From IMG/VR virus record IMGVR_UViG_3300048672_001423, positions 1 through 53,951 of that record: DNA of 53,951 bases, one strand, 5' to 3'. Shown piece after piece: positions 4,588 through 52,459 of the stretch. Each line of letters opens with the position of its first letter. Position 1 is the first letter of the stretch. Under the pieces are notes generated by a model. It searched no databases. It saw only the letters and a program-made list of their open reading frames with translations, and had not been told where the DNA came from. The stretch comes from a virus. Taxonomy: Duplodnaviria > Caudoviricetes. A program made the translations under genes and the position numbers.

Positions 4588-5187
4588 ATGAAACAAGAAA
4601 TTAAATTTATCATCATAGACTTGTTCTGTGGTGCCGGTGGAACTACAACAGGATTTGAAGAAAGTCCATATTTAAAAGTAATTGCTACACAAGAAAGGCT
4701 TGGACTTGTTACTATTGATTTTATAAGCACATATTACTCTGGGAAAGCTGATTCAAAGGTAAAATCATTAGATGTTCCTGCTGGCACAATTACAACAGTC
4801 GACCATCATGCAAAAATATCTTGCATTATGAATTATCATGGAACGACAAAAACTCTAATTTCTTCTGACAAGCCATGCCCAGTAATTGTTGCTAGACAAG
4901 ATAAAGCACCTTTGTCGCTAATTACTTGCACTCGTGGAGAGTTTTCCGTTCCTATTTACGAAAATGATTCAGAGGTAATGATTGAAATAAAAAAGTTGAT
5001 GGCAAAATATGGGATAAGAGACATTAAAACTAGAATGTTCACAGTACAGGAAAAATTAGAAATACAAGGCTTTCCAAAAAACTATGTTCTTTTTGGAAGA
5101 GTTGAAGACAAAGGGAAATTTGTTGGAAACTCTGTAACTCCAATTATTCCAAAAATGTGGATTAATGAAATGGCAAAATATGTATAA
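4588..5187 (+). pseudogene. internally deleted C5-cytosine DNA methyltransferase (ORF intact, catalytic core missing)
   Basis: Motif I IDLFCGAGG and motifs IX/X (RMFTVQE...QGFP, GNSV) are present; the catalytic PC motif IV and ENV motif VI are absent; only 199 aa. Confidence 0.7.
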
Positions 5188-5619: not shown

Positions 5620-6798
5620 ATGAGAGAAGAAATAAAAATGCGGCCCTATCAAGAAGATGCTGTACATTATACTTACGAACATTTTTATAATGTAAAAAAT
5701 AAAAACGGTATAATAATTCTTCCTACTGGTTCTGGTAAAAGTATTGTAATAGCAAATATCATCAAAAGGATAAACGTTCCTACATTGATTTTACAACCTT
5801 CTAAAGAAATTCTAGTACAGAATTACAAGAAATATACTGATTTAGGGTTTTATGCTGAGGTATTTTCTGCTTCATTGGGGCAAAAACAAGTAGGAATGGT
5901 AACATTTGCAACAATAGGCTCAATCATCAAAAAAATGGAGCTTTTCAAGCACATTAAATTGATAATAATTGATGAATGTCATGGAGTAGAACCAACAAAA
6001 GGTATGTATAATACTTTGATTAGGCAAATGAAAGTCAAAGTGATTGGATTAACAGCAACGCCTTATAGGTTGTACTCTTCAATGGGTGGTTCTGAGCTTA
6101 GATTTATCACTAGGCAACGACAAACTCAATTACATGACATCATTTATTTAGTTCAAAACAGGAAGCTTTTTGATGATAATTATTTAGCAAAACTTCGGTA
6201 TTTTGAAATTAAAGACAAACATTTTGAATATGATACATCCAAAATGGAGAAAACCGCTAACGGCTCCGATTATACCGAAAGGTCGATGAAGGAATATCAT
6301 AAGTCTATAAATTTCCCAGAAAAAATATCTAACATAGCTAATAGAGTAATAACCGCAGGAAGAAAAAACGCACTAATTTTTGTTAGATTCTTAGACGAAG
6401 CTAGGGAGATAGTAAGACTAAATCCAACATTCGGCTATATTGATGGAGAGATGGACCAAAAATCTAGAGATGCTGTAATAAAAGCATTTTTAGATGGAAG
6501 GATAAAAGTTCTTGTAAATTCTGGCGTTTTAACTACAGGTTTTGATTTTCCAGAACTAGAATGTGTGATTATGGGAAGAGATACATTATCTTTGGCACTT
6601 TATTACCAGATAGTTGGAAGAGGAATAAGGATACACAAAAACAAAGAAGATTCTTGGATTATTGATATGTGCAAAAATATTGATAGATTTGGAAAAGTTG
6701 AAGATTTAGTAATCAAGTTCGATACAAAAAGAAGGCCGTTTGTTGCAGGATTAGTAAACAAAAAACAAAAAATGCTTACAAACTGTAAAATATATTAA
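5620..6798 (+). CDS. superfamily 2 DNA helicase (RadD/UvsW-like)
   Basis: RPYQ, PTGSGKS, DECH, TATP, LTTGFDFP and QxxGRGxR motifs. Confidence 0.9.
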   Translation: MREEIKMRPYQEDAVHYTYEHFYNVKNKNGIIILPTGSGKSIVIANIIKRINVPTLILQPSKEILVQNYKKYTDLGFYAEVFSASLGQKQVGMVTFATIGSIIKKMELFKHIKLIIIDECHGVEPTKGMYNTLIRQMKVKVIGLTATPYRLYSSMGGSELRFITRQRQTQLHDIIYLVQNRKLFDDNYLAKLRYFEIKDKHFEYDTSKMEKTANGSDYTERSMKEYHKSINFPEKISNIANRVITAGRKNALIFVRFLDEAREIVRLNPTFGYIDGEMDQKSRDAVIKAFLDGRIKVLVNSGVLTTGFDFPELECVIMGRDTLSLALYYQIVGRGIRIHKNKEDSWIIDMCKNIDRFGKVEDLVIKFDTKRRPFVAGLVNKKQKMLTNCKIY

Positions 6799-35219: not shown

Positions 35220-36137
35220 CTACACGATTTCAATATCCCTTTTTGCATAATGACTAATTCTTTTTTGAGCTTTTAAGCAATTTTTCTCACTACATTCACT
35301 CATAAACCATTTTCTTCCCATCAACTCAGCCATCTTACAGGTTGTACCACTACCACCAAACATATCATAGATTAAATCACCTTTTTCCGAGAAAGAGAAA
35401 ATCATATCTCTAGCAAAATTCTCTGGGAATACAGCTTCATGCCCAGTCTTATCATCATCATTTGCATTGCCGACCACATAAGTAAAGATATTACCCTTGA
35501 CTTTCTTTTCTTTTACCTCCGATGTAAACTTTTCCTTTCCTCCATCTTTCTTCCACCTTGTCTTCGTGCCAGATTGACCAGAGTTTTGAGTATCAACTTT
35601 TAAAAGGTTGCTTGTTTTTGGAATACCGCCTTTCGTGCAAACAAAAATATATTCAAATTCTTTGGCATAGTGTGGAGAATCCAAAGAAACAGGCATATAA
35701 TTTTGCTTTCTGAATAACATCACTCGAACACTAAATCCAATGCTCTGAAAATAAATAGCTTGTCTAAAAGATGTCAAACTATCGCCATTACTAACTATAC
35801 CATTTTTAGTTAAAATATCCATCACCTTATCACCCACATTCCAAATCATAACACCATTTTGCTTCAAAATCATGTAAGCTAAATTTGCTGTCTTTTCAAA
35901 GTCAAAATCAAATCCATCATAATCACGAATCGAATCATAAGGCGGTGATGTCACAATCAAGTCAACAGTATTTTTGTCAACCATTTCCATGTGAGCAATA
36001 TTATTGCCCCGAAATATTTTCCCCTCTAATTGTTTTAAGTTCATGGGCCATCTCTCTTTTAAGTTTGTCAATTTTGTTAAATAATTTAGCAATCTCAGAC
36101 TGATAATGATTGATAATCTCCTGCTCTTCCAATTCAT
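35220..36137 (-). CDS. beta-class amino DNA methyltransferase, probably N4-cytosine (start probably ~36044)
   Basis: TSPPY catalytic motif, HxAVFP, DMFGGSGTT. Confidence 0.88.
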   Translation of the reverse strand: MNWKSRRLSIIISLRLLNYLTKLTNLKERWPMNLKQLEGKIFRGNNIAHMEMVDKNTVDLIVTSPPYDSIRDYDGFDFDFEKTANLAYMILKQNGVMIWNVGDKVMDILTKNGIVSNGDSLTSFRQAIYFQSIGFSVRVMLFRKQNYMPVSLDSPHYAKEFEYIFVCTKGGIPKTSNLLKVDTQNSGQSGTKTRWKKDGGKEKFTSEVKEKKVKGNIFTYVVGNANDDDKTGHEAVFPENFARDMIFSFSEKGDLIYDMFGGSGTTCKMAELMGRKWFMSECSEKNCLKAQKRISHYAKRDIEIV

Positions 36138-45392: not shown

Positions 45393-45464
45393 TGCGGATT
45401 AGAGCAGCGGTAGCTCGCTAGGCTCATAACCTAGAGGTCGATAGTTCAAATCTATCATCCGCAA
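45393..45464 (+). tRNA. tRNA-Met(CAT), initiator-like
   Basis: Acceptor TGCGGAT/ATCCGCA, D stem GAGC/GCTC, anticodon arm CTAGG-CTCATAA-CCTAG, GTTCAAATC T-loop; TACTTTTG -7 box upstream. Confidence 0.9.
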
Positions 45465-45556
45465 CTAAAAAAATGAAAAAACAAAATCTAAATATCAGTA
45501 GTCTTTTACCGCAGAATTTATCTGAGGATTTTTGACTATGATTTTGTTTATCATTT

Positions 45557-45592
45557 AAAAAGTCTTCTTATTAGCTTAGGAAGACTTTTTTT
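45557..45592. terminator. hairpin/terminator between tRNAs
   Basis: AAAAAGTCTTC...GAAGACTTTTT. Confidence 0.55.
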
Positions 45593-45596
45593 ATAT

Positions 45597-45672
45597 CTGA
45601 TATTGGAGAAGTTAGGCCGTTTTCGTCTGCTTTGGGAGCAGAAGACCGTAGGTTCAAATCCTACATATCAGA
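45597..45672 (+). tRNA. tRNA-Pro(TGG)
   Basis: Acceptor CTGATAT/ATATCAG, anticodon arm TCTGC-TTTGGGA-GCAGA, T arm GTAGG-TTCAAAT-CCTAC. Confidence 0.85.
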
Positions 45673-45683
45673 CTTATTTTTTT

Positions 45684-45769
45684 AGAGAGTAAACATTGAT
45701 GGTGATATGGGCCGACTGCTAATCGGTTCGACGATTAAAACCGTTTCGGTTCGATTCCGATGCTCTCTG
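45684..45769 (+). tRNA. tRNA-Ser(GCT)
   Basis: Acceptor AGAGAGT/GCTCTCT, anticodon arm GCCGA-CTGCTAA-TCGGT, long variable arm, G discriminator. Confidence 0.85.
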
Positions 45770-45770
45770 C

Positions 45771-46115
45771 TTAATTTTCTAAGTCTTCAATGAGTTTTTC
45801 AAGCCGCTTAATTTCATCTTTGTAAGTTTCTATATTTTCCTCCAAGTCAGAAATTGTTTTCTCCATTTCTTCTACCTTGTCACTTAGCTCTTCTTCCAAT
45901 TCTTTTTTCCTATTCAATAAATCGTTACCCCAATTTCTTAATAAAGAATTTGCTTCACGTATTTGTTCCATATTCTCAAGAATATCCTTTAAATCTTGTT
46001 CATTAGAACCATCCACGTTTTCAATGATGTTATAAATTGCATTTACATCTCGAATAACTGCATTAATTGTTGGACAAGTTTGTCCTACTGGTTCTTTTTC
46101 AATGTCGTATCCCAT
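45771..46115 (-). CDS. coiled-coil hypothetical protein
   Basis: TCPxI...E.IRxANxxLRxWG motif followed by an acidic coiled coil. Confidence 0.7.
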   Translation of the reverse strand: MGYDIEKEPVGQTCPTINAVIRDVNAIYNIIENVDGSNEQDLKDILENMEQIREANSLLRNWGNDLLNRKKELEEELSDKVEEMEKTISDLEENIETYKDEIKRLEKLIEDLEN

Positions 46116-46130
46116 TTTTTTTGAAATTTA

Positions 46131-46610
46131 ACTTAGTGACAGTTTTTTTTCTGCCACTAAGTATTGAACTAAAAATAACTATACTAGGCTTTGCTTTACG
46201 CCACACTACTTTACTTAAAAAAACTATATTCGACATTACTTCACTTTACTATACAAGACAGCAAAATACCAAACTTAACTATACATAACTTAACAATACA
46301 ATACGGCAAATAACTAAACCACACTTTACTTCACATTACTAAACAGGACTTCAAAAAACAAAACTAAACCATACATAGCTTCACATAACCTCACACAAAA
46401 ATACTTTACTAAACGTTACAGTACGGAACAGTACTTAACCATACTATACCTCACAAAAAAATACTTCACAAGACATAACAATACTTCACATCACTTCACG
46501 ACAAAAAACTTAACTATGCCGCACTTTGCTCTACTTGACTGTACTTCACTATAAAAAACATTGCCTTACATCACTCTACTGAACATAACGGTACATTGAA
46601 ATACTAAAAA
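46131..46610 (-). ncRNA. putative guide-RNA array transcript (NGY-NN pentamers, UUU punctuation, 3' hairpin) of the adjacent RAMP gene
   Basis: Starts at the stop codon of 46611..47192. The terminal stem pairs fully (one G-U) only as minus-strand RNA. Transcription is inferred, not shown. Confidence 0.65.
46166..46610. repeat. 89 consecutive in-phase pentamers, + strand NNRCN (77 of 89), with NNAAA punctuation
   Basis: Read directly: taact atact aggct ttgct ttacg ccaca ctact ttact taaaa aaact ...; no indel breaks the phase over 445 bp. Confidence 0.95.
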
Positions 46611-47192
46611 CTACTTAATTGGTGTGATTTTCTCTAATTCAAATCTACCAAATTCGCCAGTATGCTCTGGACGATAAGAACCTACACCTAAGTATCTTCC
46701 TGCATACTTAATGATGTCGTTTACCGTTTCTTGAGTCAATTTGTTCTTATCATCATCATCAAGAATTAAAGTAAATTCACAACGCCATTCATTCCATTTA
46801 GGTCTGTGAACCATAATACGTGCCTTGACGTTTTTGTTTACTGCTGAGCGAGAATCTATTTCATCAAACTTTCTAAATTTGATTCTTTCTTCTAAAATCC
46901 TCCATTGACCAGCTACGATGTTTTTTAATGAACGTGAGCTGTTACCGACTTTAGCTTTTACAAAAGAACCACCATTACAGAACGCTTGCTTGAAATGTGA
47001 TGATGGAATATAAAACAATCCGTTTTCATCAATGTATGAGTGAAAATGAGCTAGCTTTTCCTCTGGTGTCGCTGCATCAGAGTTTTCGATAATACGGCCT
47101 CTCGACTTTTCCCATTCTGCAAGCTTCTTGTCGTCCATGCGATGTTGCATATATGGCGTTACTCCAACGATTTGTAATTTGAATTTTCTCAT
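46611..47192 (-). CDS. stand-alone RAMP/Cas7-like RNA-binding protein
   Basis: N-terminal beta strand IVGVTPY, YIPSSHFK (IPgssxK-like), RP...W...F.L, and C-terminal Gly-rich loop YAGRYLGVGSYRP...GEFGRF. Confidence 0.75.
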   Translation of the reverse strand: MRKFKLQIVGVTPYMQHRMDDKKLAEWEKSRGRIIENSDAATPEEKLAHFHSYIDENGLFYIPSSHFKQAFCNGGSFVKAKVGNSSRSLKNIVAGQWRILEERIKFRKFDEIDSRSAVNKNVKARIMVHRPKWNEWRCEFTLILDDDDKNKLTQETVNDIIKYAGRYLGVGSYRPEHTGEFGRFELEKITPIK

Positions 47193-48726: not shown

Positions 48727-49497
48727 TTAATAAGCATCAAGAAGGAACTTTTCTATCCAATTTTTGGTGTCATTTGAAAAATCCTGCCCAAGCATCCATC
48801 TTAAATAGTTTTTTTCCCAGAAAACATTTTTGCCTTGATTCTTTCCAAAATTGAAAACATATTCACCTTTTTCATTTGTTGTAAATCTTTGAGCAAAATC
48901 AACTCTTGGTTTTCCATTGTTTACTAACAGTTCAATCGAATCGGCTTCCTCAATATTCAACTCGTGTCTTTCTAGTTGACACATAAGAACTTCATCTGAT
49001 GCGTTTACGTCTGCCATTGCATTGTGAGCATCCTCTAATTGTTTTTTTGTATAGTTTCTATAAACATTAGACAATGTTCTTGGATTGAAATGGTTGTTAA
49101 TTTTGAATGTATCCAAGATGATTTTCTTTGAAAAATCAACTGAATAACTAATTCGGTCAAGTTCTGATAATAACAAAGGAACATCAAAGCTGCCAATATT
49201 ATAACCAGATAAACAATCTGTTTCTAAGCCAAAGAAAATCATTAGTTCATCAGATATTTCCTCCAACTTGGGAGCGTTTTTTACCATTTCATCAGTAATT
49301 CCATGAACTTCACTTGCTCCAAGTGGAATAGTGATGCCAGGGTTTACATAGCTCTCAAACATTCTGAGAGTGTACATAACATTTTCTTCTGAATTCCATT
49401 CCTGTAGCTTACAGGCAATTTGTACAATTCTGTCTTTGTTTGTATCTACACCAGTAGTTTCCAAATCAAACGATGCAATTCTTAAATTTTTCTTCAT
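48727..49497 (-). CDS. DEDDh 3'-5' exonuclease (DnaQ-like)
   Basis: FDLETTG, GYNxxxFD, HNAMAD, C-terminal FNFGKxxG motif. Confidence 0.9.
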   Translation of the reverse strand: MKKNLRIASFDLETTGVDTNKDRIVQIACKLQEWNSEENVMYTLRMFESYVNPGITIPLGASEVHGITDEMVKNAPKLEEISDELMIFFGLETDCLSGYNIGSFDVPLLLSELDRISYSVDFSKKIILDTFKINNHFNPRTLSNVYRNYTKKQLEDAHNAMADVNASDEVLMCQLERHELNIEEADSIELLVNNGKPRVDFAQRFTTNEKGEYVFNFGKNQGKNVFWEKNYLRWMLGQDFSNDTKNWIEKFLLDAY

Positions 49498-50820: not shown

Positions 50821-51528
50821 TTAATCGTTGTTTTTTTGAAAATAATAAATTGATGTTTGAACGTTTGTTCTAGCAAACGGTATGTTATGCTCAACAACGT
50901 AATGTAGTTGCCATTTTTTGAGTGCGTTTTGAGTCTCTTTGTGCTTAATATCCATAAAAGTTGATGGAAGAATCACGTACAAAGAACCATATTCATCAAT
51001 CAAATCATGTGCTTTGTTGAATAATAATGGGTAAAACTCTTTTTGATAAGGTGGATTAGAAATGATTATGTCAAAGTTTTTTTCTTCTGGGTTGTAGTCT
51101 TCTAATTGTACATTATGAAAATTAATTTCTTTCTCATTACATACAAAATCAAAATCCTGCTCAATATCTGAATCTATGCCAGTTACTCGACAATATCCTC
51201 TATCAACAAACTCTTTTCCAAGCATCCCGAAACCGCAGCATAAATCAAGTATTGTTGAATACTTAGTCATAAATGTAAATGATTCAACAGTTTCAAAGAA
51301 CAGTTTTGATAACTGTGGTGGAGTGAAAAATTGGTCATTATAAACACCGCTTTTTCTTTGTCTTTCAATCAAATACTCATAAACCCAATTTTTTTCATCA
51401 GAAACATTGAAAGGCAATGAGCCAGTTGCTTTATAGTACTCAGCTATTTGAGGAATAGTATAAGGCATTGTTTTTCTTTGGTTTTGCTTTATGTAATATT
51501 CCAAAGAATAAGTTTTTAAAGTTTGCAT
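50821..51528 (-). CDS. gamma-class N6-adenine methyltransferase
   Basis: QFFTP, LDLCCGFG, ISNPPY. Confidence 0.8.
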   Translation of the reverse strand: MQTLKTYSLEYYIKQNQRKTMPYTIPQIAEYYKATGSLPFNVSDEKNWVYEYLIERQRKSGVYNDQFFTPPQLSKLFFETVESFTFMTKYSTILDLCCGFGMLGKEFVDRGYCRVTGIDSDIEQDFDFVCNEKEINFHNVQLEDYNPEEKNFDIIISNPPYQKEFYPLLFNKAHDLIDEYGSLYVILPSTFMDIKHKETQNALKKWQLHYVVEHNIPFARTNVQTSIYYFQKNND

Positions 51529-51727: not shown

Positions 51728-52459
51728 CTACGCTGTCAAACGCTGAACGGCTATATCGAAATATTTCTTTTCCTTTTCCATGCCGACAAATTGGCGGTTA
51801 AGGTTTTGACAGGCTACGGCAGTTGTTCCACTTCCAAAAGTATTATCAAGCACTAAATCACTTTCGTTTGTGTAGGTTTTTACAAAATATTCCATCAAAA
51901 AAACAGGTTTTTGCGTTGGGTGAAAAATATTTTGCGTGTTGGCATTTTGTACTTCGATAATCCGTTTAGGGTATCTCATGCCAGTTTCAAGTTGATTGAA
52001 AGCATATTCTTCACCATAGCAATCTGATTTCCTCTTTTTTACCAACCCTCTTTTATATTGCTTTTCCGCTTGAATCATTTGTGGATTATAAATAGGTGGC
52101 TTTTTATAAAACACGCAAATATCTTCATAATCATTTAGAGGGCGTTTTTTAGCATCTAAAAAGCCCGTTGCTTTTGTTTTTTTATATATCCAATTGTACC
52201 TAAATAGTGAAGGGTTGCTCATTATCAATGCACTTGTGAAAGGTTGTGAAGCACTAAGCACAATTGCACCATTATCTTTAATAATTCTCTCGTATTCTTT
52301 CCAAAGTTTATCAAAAGGAAGAATTGAATCCCATTTGCATTGAGTTGTACCATAGGGCAAATCTGCCAAAATTAAATCTACTGATTTATCAGCTATTTTC
52401 GGAAAAATATCAAAGCAATCAGCATTAAAAAGTTTTATTCTGTCATTACTCCAAATCAT
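51728..52459 (-). CDS. beta-class amino (N4/N6) DNA methyltransferase
   Basis: ADLPYG, HPTQKP, LDNTFGSGTT. Confidence 0.9.
   Translation of the reverse strand: MIWSNDRIKLFNADCFDIFPKIADKSVDLILADLPYGTTQCKWDSILPFDKLWKEYERIIKDNGAIVLSASQPFTSALIMSNPSLFRYNWIYKKTKATGFLDAKKRPLNDYEDICVFYKKPPIYNPQMIQAEKQYKRGLVKKRKSDCYGEEYAFNQLETGMRYPKRIIEVQNANTQNIFHPTQKPVFLMEYFVKTYTNESDLVLDNTFGSGTTAVACQNLNRQFVGMEKEKKYFDIAVQRLTA

Follow-up and report, generated by a model that had tools for sequence, protein, structure and literature searches.

VIPR (Viral Interference Programmable Repeat) systems reside mostly in viruses. Their reported parts are a vipr gene, in most cases a single vap gene, and vrRNAs made of 9–16 repeats, in which the triplet GGY alternates with two free letters, NN (10.64898/2026.04.26.720920). 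Seven VIPR types are defined in the same preprint, which also mentions alternative repeats (NNNGG, YNNNG, NNNNG) and 'staggered' arrays, each vrRNA of which starts at the end of the preceding one. In the complex of Escherichia phage SUSP1 one Vipr protomer is bound to each repeat, and the protein holds the GGY triplet in a flipped-out position (10.64898/2026.04.26.720927). The NN letters pair with DNA, where every third base is skipped, and binding represses transcription; the published rule assigns the skipped base to the wobble position (10.64898/2026.04.26.720920). Satellites, prophages, viral sequences and rival VIPR systems are the natural targets reported (10.64898/2026.04.26.720920; 10.64898/2026.10.15.759431), and VIPR is described as deciding the competition between phages and satellites (10.64898/2026.10.15.759431). 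Non-canonical repeats, including 'WGT/NN', have been reported beside Vipr-like folds (10.64898/2026.10.21.760802). The minus strand of a tailed freshwater phage, known as IMG/VR virus record IMGVR_UViG_3300048672_001423, carries at positions 46131–47192 what is very probably a VIPR locus, with guided DNA silencing of the SUSP1 kind. Positions refer to the window, which is the whole stretch of DNA analysed (53,951 nucleotides, nt) and corresponds to the entire record, a linear one with a completeness estimate of 84%. The locus is composed of a vipr gene (46611..47192) and of an array of about nine vrRNAs (46166..46610), which starts directly after the stop codon of the gene. The assignment is based on homology, fold, array, association of gene and array across homologues, and residue pattern, all of which were observed.

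The vipr gene encodes a protein of 193 amino acids (aa), which matches no Pfam family and no PADLOC model. In PHROGs the protein matches phrog_4652 (E 2.6e-17), a family of unknown function. A single-sequence phmmer search of the sequences of solved structures connected residues 120–187 to PDB chain 36pp_D, named 'SUSP1 Vipr protein' (E 9.3e-7). With a profile made of 47 sequences, the protein and 46 homologues, the match to the same chain spans profile positions 1–186 and residues 1–190 of 202 (E 2.7e-16). BLASTP comparison to the Vipr of the SUSP1-like phage heid revealed 37% identity over 67 residues in the C-terminal third of the protein (E 7e-13). The AlphaFold2 model (predicted local distance difference test score, pLDDT, 83.8; predicted template modelling score, pTM, 0.79) features an RRM core, a thumb formed by the beta-hairpin 111–133, which carries R130, and a Gly-rich loop (169–184), and has no second RRM; domain boundaries were read from the secondary-structure line of the model, without structure superposition. 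The Gly-rich loop aligns with the SUSP1 G-loop. In the sequence-only reading, an annotation made by a model from the letters and their open reading frames (ORFs), this C-terminal loop had been singled out as a RAMP/Cas7 hallmark, which the alignment supports. The IPxSxxK motif, to which the same role had been given, is conserved in the clade, and its proline (P63) is invariant; it is aligned with unlike residues in SUSP1, which gives no support to its being a hallmark of RAMP proteins. Judged from sequence and model, the protein is a Vipr-family minimal RAMP. As many as 669 of 762 candidate proteins belong to the homologue family at E ≤0.001. None of these is informatively named, and the members of the NCBI cluster of the protein are unnamed. 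Matches in cultured phages (68 records) are to SUSP1-type proteins only, at <60% identity, and cover about a third of the query (35% among the matches listed).

Foldseek searches with the model, a check that the sequence-only reading had proposed for its solo RAMP/Cas7-like protein, gave 119 matches at E ≤0.001, all to be read at low identity (10–17%). The top ones are chains of type III-A Csm, type III-B Cmr, type VII and Cas7-11 complexes, 6ifl_F being the best (E 4.4e-7). The Csm chains matched are presumably Csm3/Csm5. Chain 6ifn_E, also matched (E 2.2e-6), is the Cas7 query chain of the VIPR authors (10.64898/2026.04.26.720920). As far as the model goes, the protein resembles the backbones of class 1 Cas7 in having an RRM core, a Gly-rich loop and a beta-hairpin thumb, and would share with them fixed-step polymerisation along a guide, with bases flipped out. 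It differs from Cas7 in sequence, in matching no PADLOC Cas model, in a step of 5 rather than 6 nt, and because a crRNA repeat handle is missing. The locus is not a CRISPR-Cas system. No period of the size of a CRISPR repeat plus spacer was called by Tandem Repeats Finder, though no search aimed specifically at interspaced direct repeats was made, and no multi-gene effector or adaptation module was recognized by PADLOC. Among the 70 window ORFs no core cas model found a match, in line with the absence of cas1/2/3/5/6 noted from the sequence, and Cas5, Cas6, Cas10, Cas11 and adaptation genes were likewise missing from the record in the PADLOC scan. Matches carrying a CRISPR label are to generic 'associated' models only, a DEDDh exonuclease model on ORF 48730–49497 and, weakly, a DinG model on the helicase ORF 5620–6795.

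The similarity to Cas7 backbones raises the question of whether the filament targets RNA, as type III backbones do, with the result that translation is blocked or transcripts are marked. Vipr itself aside, the nearest solved folds are in fact backbones of type III, type VII and Cas7-11, which target RNA, and the SUSP1 complex is reported to pair with single-stranded RNA in vitro. According to the same preprint, however, RNA targets give mostly incomplete filaments, and a triplex with the non-target DNA strand is needed (10.64898/2026.04.26.720927). Two lysines, K79 and K81, aligned with the SUSP1 region which clamps the non-target strand, are invariant in the clade, although the alignment is only moderately reliable there. 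Moreover, guide letters look coding-sense (see below), which disfavours the targeting of mRNA, because coding-sense guides pair with antisense RNA only. RNA targeting is considered very unlikely.

The array (46166..46610, minus strand) begins with the base right after the TAG of the 193-aa ORF. It is made by 89 pentamers in a single register, unbroken over 445 nt, and 77 pentamers fit the consensus N-G-Y-N-N, mostly as AGU or UGU followed by two free letters. The register, the count and the prevalence of AGU/UGU over GGY had been noted exactly in the sequence-only reading. The letter G fills position 2 in 77 pentamers, the rest having T (11) or A (1), and at position 3 there are 82 T and 7 C. 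The other three positions are free and A/T-rich: 1 (A 40, T 35, G 8, C 6), 4 (A 36, T 29, G 18, C 6) and 5 (A 38, T 34, C 11, G 6). The dinucleotide GY occurs at 7.7% of the positions of the minus strand. In other runs of 89 pentamers of the window the best in-phase GY count was 14–18 on the minus strand and 15–20 on the plus strand, and 16–20 when the window was simulated 20 times with a first-order Markov model; the binomial tail for 77 in-phase GY out of 89 is ~1e-72. Tandem Repeats Finder did not call the period of 5, and picked up only a 37-nt piece of period 15 at 46265–46301. This fits an array whose copies share only two fixed letters, and agrees with the view, already put forward from the sequence, that the tract is not a slippage microsatellite. 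The array RNA is predicted to fold no better than shuffled sequences (z-score −0.16), as fits a single strand coated by protein. No Rfam family, hammerhead included, was found in the window array or in the arrays of 10 relatives.

Loci hosting vipr homologues were fetched from 14 viral contigs (43–54% identity), 80 metagenome contigs (45–71%) and 3 genomes. The 94 viral and metagenome loci include duplicates, and non-redundant sources, window included, are 87. The genome records are metagenome-assembled genomes (MAGs) labelled Bacteroidota, the phylum to which Bacteroidales belong. Arrays, meant as runs of at least 8 NGY repeats, are found in 14/14 IMG/VR loci and in 3/3 MAG loci; of the viral and metagenome loci, 94 in all, 90 have them adjoining the gene and on its strand. 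The periodicity that the sequence-only reading expected beside homologues is thus a feature of the clade. In the 94 loci, 219 runs are on the strand of the gene, 3 on the other strand, and 7 are not adjacent to it. Arrays may be located upstream or downstream of vipr, or on both sides. Those devoid of arrays are L016, L018 and L019, which form one lineage 64% identical to the window Vipr, and the short L069. Guides are hypervariable, as the best NN identity of window units to units of relatives is 0.67–0.79, and the mean for shuffled sequences is 0.76.

Two cases deserve separate mention. In L016, L018 and L019 no NGY array is found within 1–3 kb on either side of vipr (about 3001–3576 in L019), and the gene may be an orphan, relying on guides encoded elsewhere or by other elements. 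In the viral contig L014 (3001–3594) the vipr homologue is split by one in-frame stop into 107 and 73 aa, and is still flanked by short NGY runs; it could be a pseudogene, or reflect a sequencing error or recoding.

The tract might be thought to act as DNA, providing sites for protein binding or bent DNA, or to be a decaying relic devoid of guide function. No promoter or terminator signal above chance is associated with the region (promoter-like sites are 9 vs 8.9 expected, terminator-like sites 1 vs 0.6 expected, the one found lying inside the vipr ORF on the opposite strand), and the sequencing runs listed as containing the region include no RNA run. Such a role is nonetheless most improbable, given the strand bias of the runs (219 vs 3), a register kept without breaks over 445 nt, a G-U scaffold conserved among relatives in which the other letters change completely, the invariance of RNA-binding residues of the protein, and the guide RNAs which homologous systems are reported to make (10.64898/2026.04.26.720920).

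The residues of SUSP1 Vipr that contact the repeat (10.64898/2026.04.26.720927) were mapped through the profile alignment onto the alignment of 47 sequences. H17 corresponds to H17, R138 to R130 and R179 to R174, and all three are conserved in 47/47 sequences. W178 is replaced by Y173 (Y in 34, F in 13), and D177 by S172, which is Ser in 47/47. In SUSP1, D177 is reported to form a hydrogen bond with the first G of the repeat, and H17 is the other contact of this base (10.64898/2026.04.26.720927). Judging from the alignment, the contacts of the second G and of the pyrimidine are kept, and one of the two contacts of the first G is lost. The change from Asp to Ser at 172 matches the relaxation of the first letter of the repeats, a correlation only. 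The replacement, which falls in the G-loop, may explain the shift from GGY to WGU. The pattern is not peculiar to the window. Across the 14 viral loci, which together provide 634 repeats, the first letter is A (.40), T (.32), C (.15) or G (.14), and the third is mostly T (.87). As a control, the same script was run on phage heid, and retrieved GGY arrays around the vipr-vap pair, with G at position 1 in 52/70 repeats.

The closest known systems include type II VIPR, the type of SUSP1 and of a Pseudomonas fulva prophage. Both the locus and type II feature a single Vipr RAMP of ~20 kDa, homologous over its full length, and pentanucleotide repeats, in which a G-pyrimidine core is fixed and two letters are free, located beside the gene on its strand; both are borne by phages and lack cas genes and CRISPR arrays, and they have in common the residues contacting the second G and the pyrimidine. 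In contrast to type II systems, the first letter of the window repeats is free, mostly A/U rather than G, the equivalent of Asp177 is Ser, and no vap gene is found at the locus. The window guides measure 8–11 repeats and are arranged head to tail in one register, with UUU-NN separators and without a structured tail for each unit. Identity is moreover limited to ~37% over the C-terminal third. Read from its third letter, the window motif is Y-N-N-N-G, and in its own register W-G-T-N-N. It follows that a variant repeat of this sort is already in print, as both YNNNG and WGT/NN are mentioned in the preprints. The layout, with vrRNAs placed head to tail, recalls the staggered arrays (10.64898/2026.04.26.720920), and the presence of a Vipr-like fold beside the arrays is shared with the WGT/NN clusters (10.64898/2026.10.21.760802). 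The canonical GGY/NN consensus is not followed, G being the first letter in 8/89 window pentamers. Since the preprints allow for related consensus sequences (YNNNG, WGT/NN), this mismatch is of relevance for the subtype, not for membership in VIPR.

The 12 pentamers which deviate from NGY are not scattered. They are numbers 0, 2, 11, 21, 30, 42, 51, 60, 69, 76, 78 and 87, and all but number 76 are U-rich and delimit units. At the nine punctuation pentamers UUU replaces NGY, and pentamer 2 reads UUCAA. Punctuation recurs every 9–12 pentamers, and splits the tract into nine units measuring, in order, 8, 9, 8, 11, 8, 8, 8, 8 and 8 repeats. The array opens with a 15-nt leader, UUUUU-AGUAU-UUCAA (46596..46610, minus strand), located directly after the vipr stop codon, which by sequence looks like the motif found at the end of units (AGUAW followed by UUYNN), as in L020 and L022. 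Candidate vrRNA units follow on the same strand. Unit 1 (46556..46595, 8 repeats) includes pentamers 3–10 and is closed by UUUAU at pentamer 11; unit 2 (46506..46550, 9 repeats) pentamers 12–20, closed by UUUGU at 21; unit 3 (46461..46500, 8 repeats) pentamers 22–29, closed by UUUUU at 30; unit 4 (46401..46455, 11 repeats) pentamers 31–41, closed by UUUUG at 42; unit 5 (46356..46395, 8 repeats) pentamers 43–50, closed by UUUGA at 51; unit 6 (46311..46350, 8 repeats) pentamers 52–59, closed by UUUGC at 60. Unit 7 (46266..46305, 8 repeats, pentamers 61–68, closed by UUUGC at 69) is peculiar as all its 16 guide letters are A or U; skipped bases excluded, a target for it would consist of A and T alone, as is seen in promoters or origins. 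Unit 8 (46221..46260, 8 repeats, pentamers 70–77, closed by UUUUA at 78) has one irregular repeat, AAUAU. Unit 9 (46176..46215, 8 repeats, pentamers 79–86) is closed by UUUUU at 87, and is followed by a final repeat, number 88 (AGUUC).

In the last repeat of each window unit both free letters are A/U only. Units end with AGUAW followed by UUY-NN in the window and close relatives, and no structured tail is found after each unit. Among 269 units from the 87 sources, the three letters after the unit are most often TTT (92), TTA (25) and TTC (16), and the commonest last repeats are AGTTT (51), AGTAA (37) and AGTAT (36). The head-to-tail, single-register layout is common to the closest relatives (L008, L017, L020–L023, L025, L083, L087), and other relatives (L002, L010) have a longer conserved spacer after each unit. 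A box of the type found in Bacteroidota promoters, judged by eye, was sought in the punctuation and discarded, as it fits only 1/9 junctions. Eight vrRNA-like units are present in L002 (3582–4468), seven of which are followed by a nearly identical spacer of ~48 nt containing a small hairpin, matched by no Rfam family; the spacer is possibly a tail or a promoter of each unit.

Just past the window array, a stem-loop with a 12-bp stem and a loop of eight A residues is predicted at 46131..46162 (minus strand; −16.8 kcal/mol, z-score −4.8, none of 200 shuffles as stable). It is not followed by a U-tract and was not called by the terminator scan, and nothing comparable was seen at the array ends of the relatives inspected. 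It may be a 3' cap or a terminator of the array transcript.

Natural variation provides a view of the units. All of the 8 DNA sequencing runs listed as containing the region carry freshwater, freshwater-sediment or aquatic metagenome labels, and contigs from 4 of them, the only ones checked, were compared with the region. In one contig, from another freshwater run, exactly 90 nt (46236–46325), corresponding to 18 pentamers, are missing. The deletion joins unit 6 to unit 8, and both the register and the 45-nt period of the units are kept. The variant supports the modularity of the units, with the proviso that it is a single low-depth contig (depth 3.9). One diverged relative was also found among the contigs compared.

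By homology with SUSP1, the transcript would be coated by Vipr protomers, one for each pentamer. G-loop, thumb and RRM sheet would together form pockets that lock the conserved G-U of the repeat, and the two letters after it would be presented for pairing. The filament would then pair with double-stranded DNA matching the pattern NN-x-NN-x, and block transcription. This is much the arrangement imagined in the sequence-only reading, where each subunit grips a triplet and displays the NN letters, and corresponds to what the cryo-electron microscopy preprint reports for SUSP1 (10.64898/2026.04.26.720927). The UUU-NN pentamer, devoid of G, may end the filament and mark the site at which a long transcript is cut or trimmed. 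We infer that the array is transcribed and processed, that filaments are formed, that the one-base-skip rule applies in this clade, and that a biological target exists, the likeliest being a competing phage or other mobile element in the same host.

Targets were sought by using as patterns the guide letters arranged under the one-base-skip rule. Searches of sequence collections were by exact match, and were carried out with units 4 and 2. The full unit 4 pattern (22 fixed letters) had no exact match in the viral, metagenome and genome contig collections, nor had the full unit 2 pattern (18 fixed letters) in viral contigs. Shortened patterns gave 2 matches for unit 4 (18 letters) and 13 for unit 2 (16 letters). 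These were dismissed as chance hits: the contigs, the GC content of which ranges from 28% to 66%, are mutually unrelated except for L102 and L108 (88% alike), and none of the matches extends into the remaining repeats. When mismatches were tolerated, the 269 units compared with 0.43 Mb of local DNA gave no better result with a skip of 1 than with skips of 0, 2 or 3. The negative outcome is a weak one, because at scale only exact matching was used. No target, therefore, supports the one-base-skip rule in the WGU/NN clade.

The lack of a competitor among the matches could mean that the locus silences host genes during takeover, or genes of the phage itself for timing, rather than rival phages. 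Two further points are in favour: the locus lies among small early and replication genes, which share its strand, and the A/U letters of unit 7 would fit AT-rich promoter DNA. Within the 53,951-base record, however, no self-target is better than those obtained under wrong skip lengths. Unit 4 finds no match, at up to 3 mismatches, in the three MAGs carrying relatives, and a search of 401 Bacteroidota genomes at up to 2 mismatches gave 3 matches for it vs 4 for the reversed control; candidate host genomes were searched with unit 4 alone. The guide sets examined in the preprints, furthermore, are directed against satellites, prophages, viral sequences and rival VIPR systems. Silencing of host or phage genes is unlikely on balance, if not to be neglected. 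A VIPR locus directed against competing elements is still the preferred interpretation.

The composition of the guides bears on the code. In the relatives (n=3163), N4N5, the two letters following G-Y, fit positions 1–2 of sense codons best among six registers, with a log-likelihood of −2.638 per dinucleotide vs −2.703 for the next best. In the window alone the ranking is the same, but weak. The fit agrees with the published rule placing the skipped base at the wobble position. The first letter of the next repeat, N1', is not neutral in this respect. N5N1' fit best codon positions 2–3, and N1' depends on the preceding NN. Stop-like N4N5N1' triplets are 131/2755 vs 168–170 ± 8–9 in shuffled sets, a value as low being obtained in 0/1000 shuffles, and the depletion holds when shuffling is restricted to letters sharing the same N5. 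TAT is in excess (90 vs 58.7 expected), TAA (62 vs 82.7) and TAG (14 vs 24.4) are depleted. In contrast, TGA is not depleted (36 vs 38). The score of the codon model beats 1000/1000 shuffles, yet is negative overall because stop-like triplets remain. The dependence of N1' may indicate that wobble information is carried or read by the first letter; a bias in sequence context could explain it equally well.

These figures are at the base of a different reading of the same machinery, in which the first letter is a third guide letter, contiguous triplets N4 N5 N1' are read, and the skipped base is absent or partly read. Position 1 is indeed as variable as positions 4 and 5, both in the window and in the 634 repeats of relatives, and the residue reading the first G is Ser in all 47 sequences; the depletion of stop-like triplets, with TAT up and TAA/TAG down, and the codon fit of N5N1' go in the same direction. 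On the other side are the normal frequency of TGA and the presence of several stop-like triplets in long units, so that triplets are not simple copies of codons. H17, the other residue contacting the first G in SUSP1, is kept. In the matches to shortened patterns the skipped base is identical to N1' in only 0–4 of 9–11 places, though these are chance-level matches and not real targets. The bias, finally, could be a context effect in the RNA or a relic of the origin of the guides. A third-letter code is therefore judged improbable. The corollary, by which the Ser172 WGU/NN branch would use a second and denser VIPR code, with five guide letters per three target letters and only G-U flipped out, is similarly doubtful. 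Were the free first letter read, the code would differ from the published one.

Several observations weigh against the assignment to a SUSP1-like VIPR system with an NN code. The repeats are not GGY. Substitutions of GGY, including GGY-to-AGY, have been assayed in SUSP1, and perturbation of the GGY motifs is reported to abolish silencing (10.64898/2026.04.26.720920), so that the SUSP1 mechanism cannot be transferred letter for letter. Unlike in SUSP1 vrRNAs, units have no structured 3' tail of their own, and a single hairpin follows the array as a whole. With 8 repeats, most guides fall short of the 9–16 of type II. As the last repeat of each unit has only A/U letters, usable specificity may be restricted to 12–16 bases. 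No accessory gene is conserved, as vipr is the only gene shared among 98 sources, and the next same-strand family is found in 8. No natural target was detected under the one-base-skip rule, and the first letter is not independent of the preceding NN, a dependence that a plain NN-only code does not predict.

In keeping with the lack of a conserved partner, the genes next to the locus in the window have no homologues in the other loci. The ORF immediately upstream of vipr, 146 aa in length, is unrelated to the gene in the vap position of phage heid (E 5.6). It is separated from vipr by 29 nt and lies on the same strand, and because of this vipr and the upstream ORF are likely co-transcribed, as far as can be told from their layout. 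Phage genes elsewhere in the record include those for terminase, tape measure, tail proteins, endolysin, helicase, primase, a polymerase-exonuclease subunit and several DNA methyltransferases. PHROGs scans of the window proteins revealed no integrase.

VIPR is a newly described and very small RNA-guided DNA-binding system, of which only type II members have been closely studied. The resemblance to phage VIPR loci suggested by the sequence-only reading is borne out by Vipr homology, fold and arrays in relatives, and its interpretation is supported in substance. The idea of an RNA-guided system other than CRISPR holds; its novelty does not, as the system is the published VIPR family, and family, alternative motif and head-to-tail arrays are already described in the 2026 preprints. 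From its sequences, the branch is characterized by WGU/NN repeats, by Ser in place of the Asp reading the first G, by the absence of vap, and by compact arrays kept in one register and punctuated by UUU-NN. The locus offers a clean natural case of WGU being read in place of GGY, and adds to the family a well-delimited member with testable details, not a new kind of system. The presence of nine guides in 445 nt, punctuated by single pentamers, bears on the processing of vrRNAs and on the design of compact multiplexed guide arrays.

Minor features were also noted in the window and in one relative. Three tRNA genes (Met-CAT, Pro-TGG, Ser-GCT) are found at 45393–45770 of the window (plus strand), just downstream of the VIPR locus and between minus-strand ORFs; the tRNA-Ser gene ends one base before the stop of ORF 45771–46115. 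In one relative, a viral contig of 121 kb, a tmRNA (L009:4008–4526; Rfam E 5e-34) and a tRNA are located 0.4–1 kb downstream of vipr. At least 4 window ORFs match DNA methyltransferase families (4588–5184, 35223–36137, 50824–51528, 51731–52459), an anti-restriction load unusually high for a phage of 54 kb.

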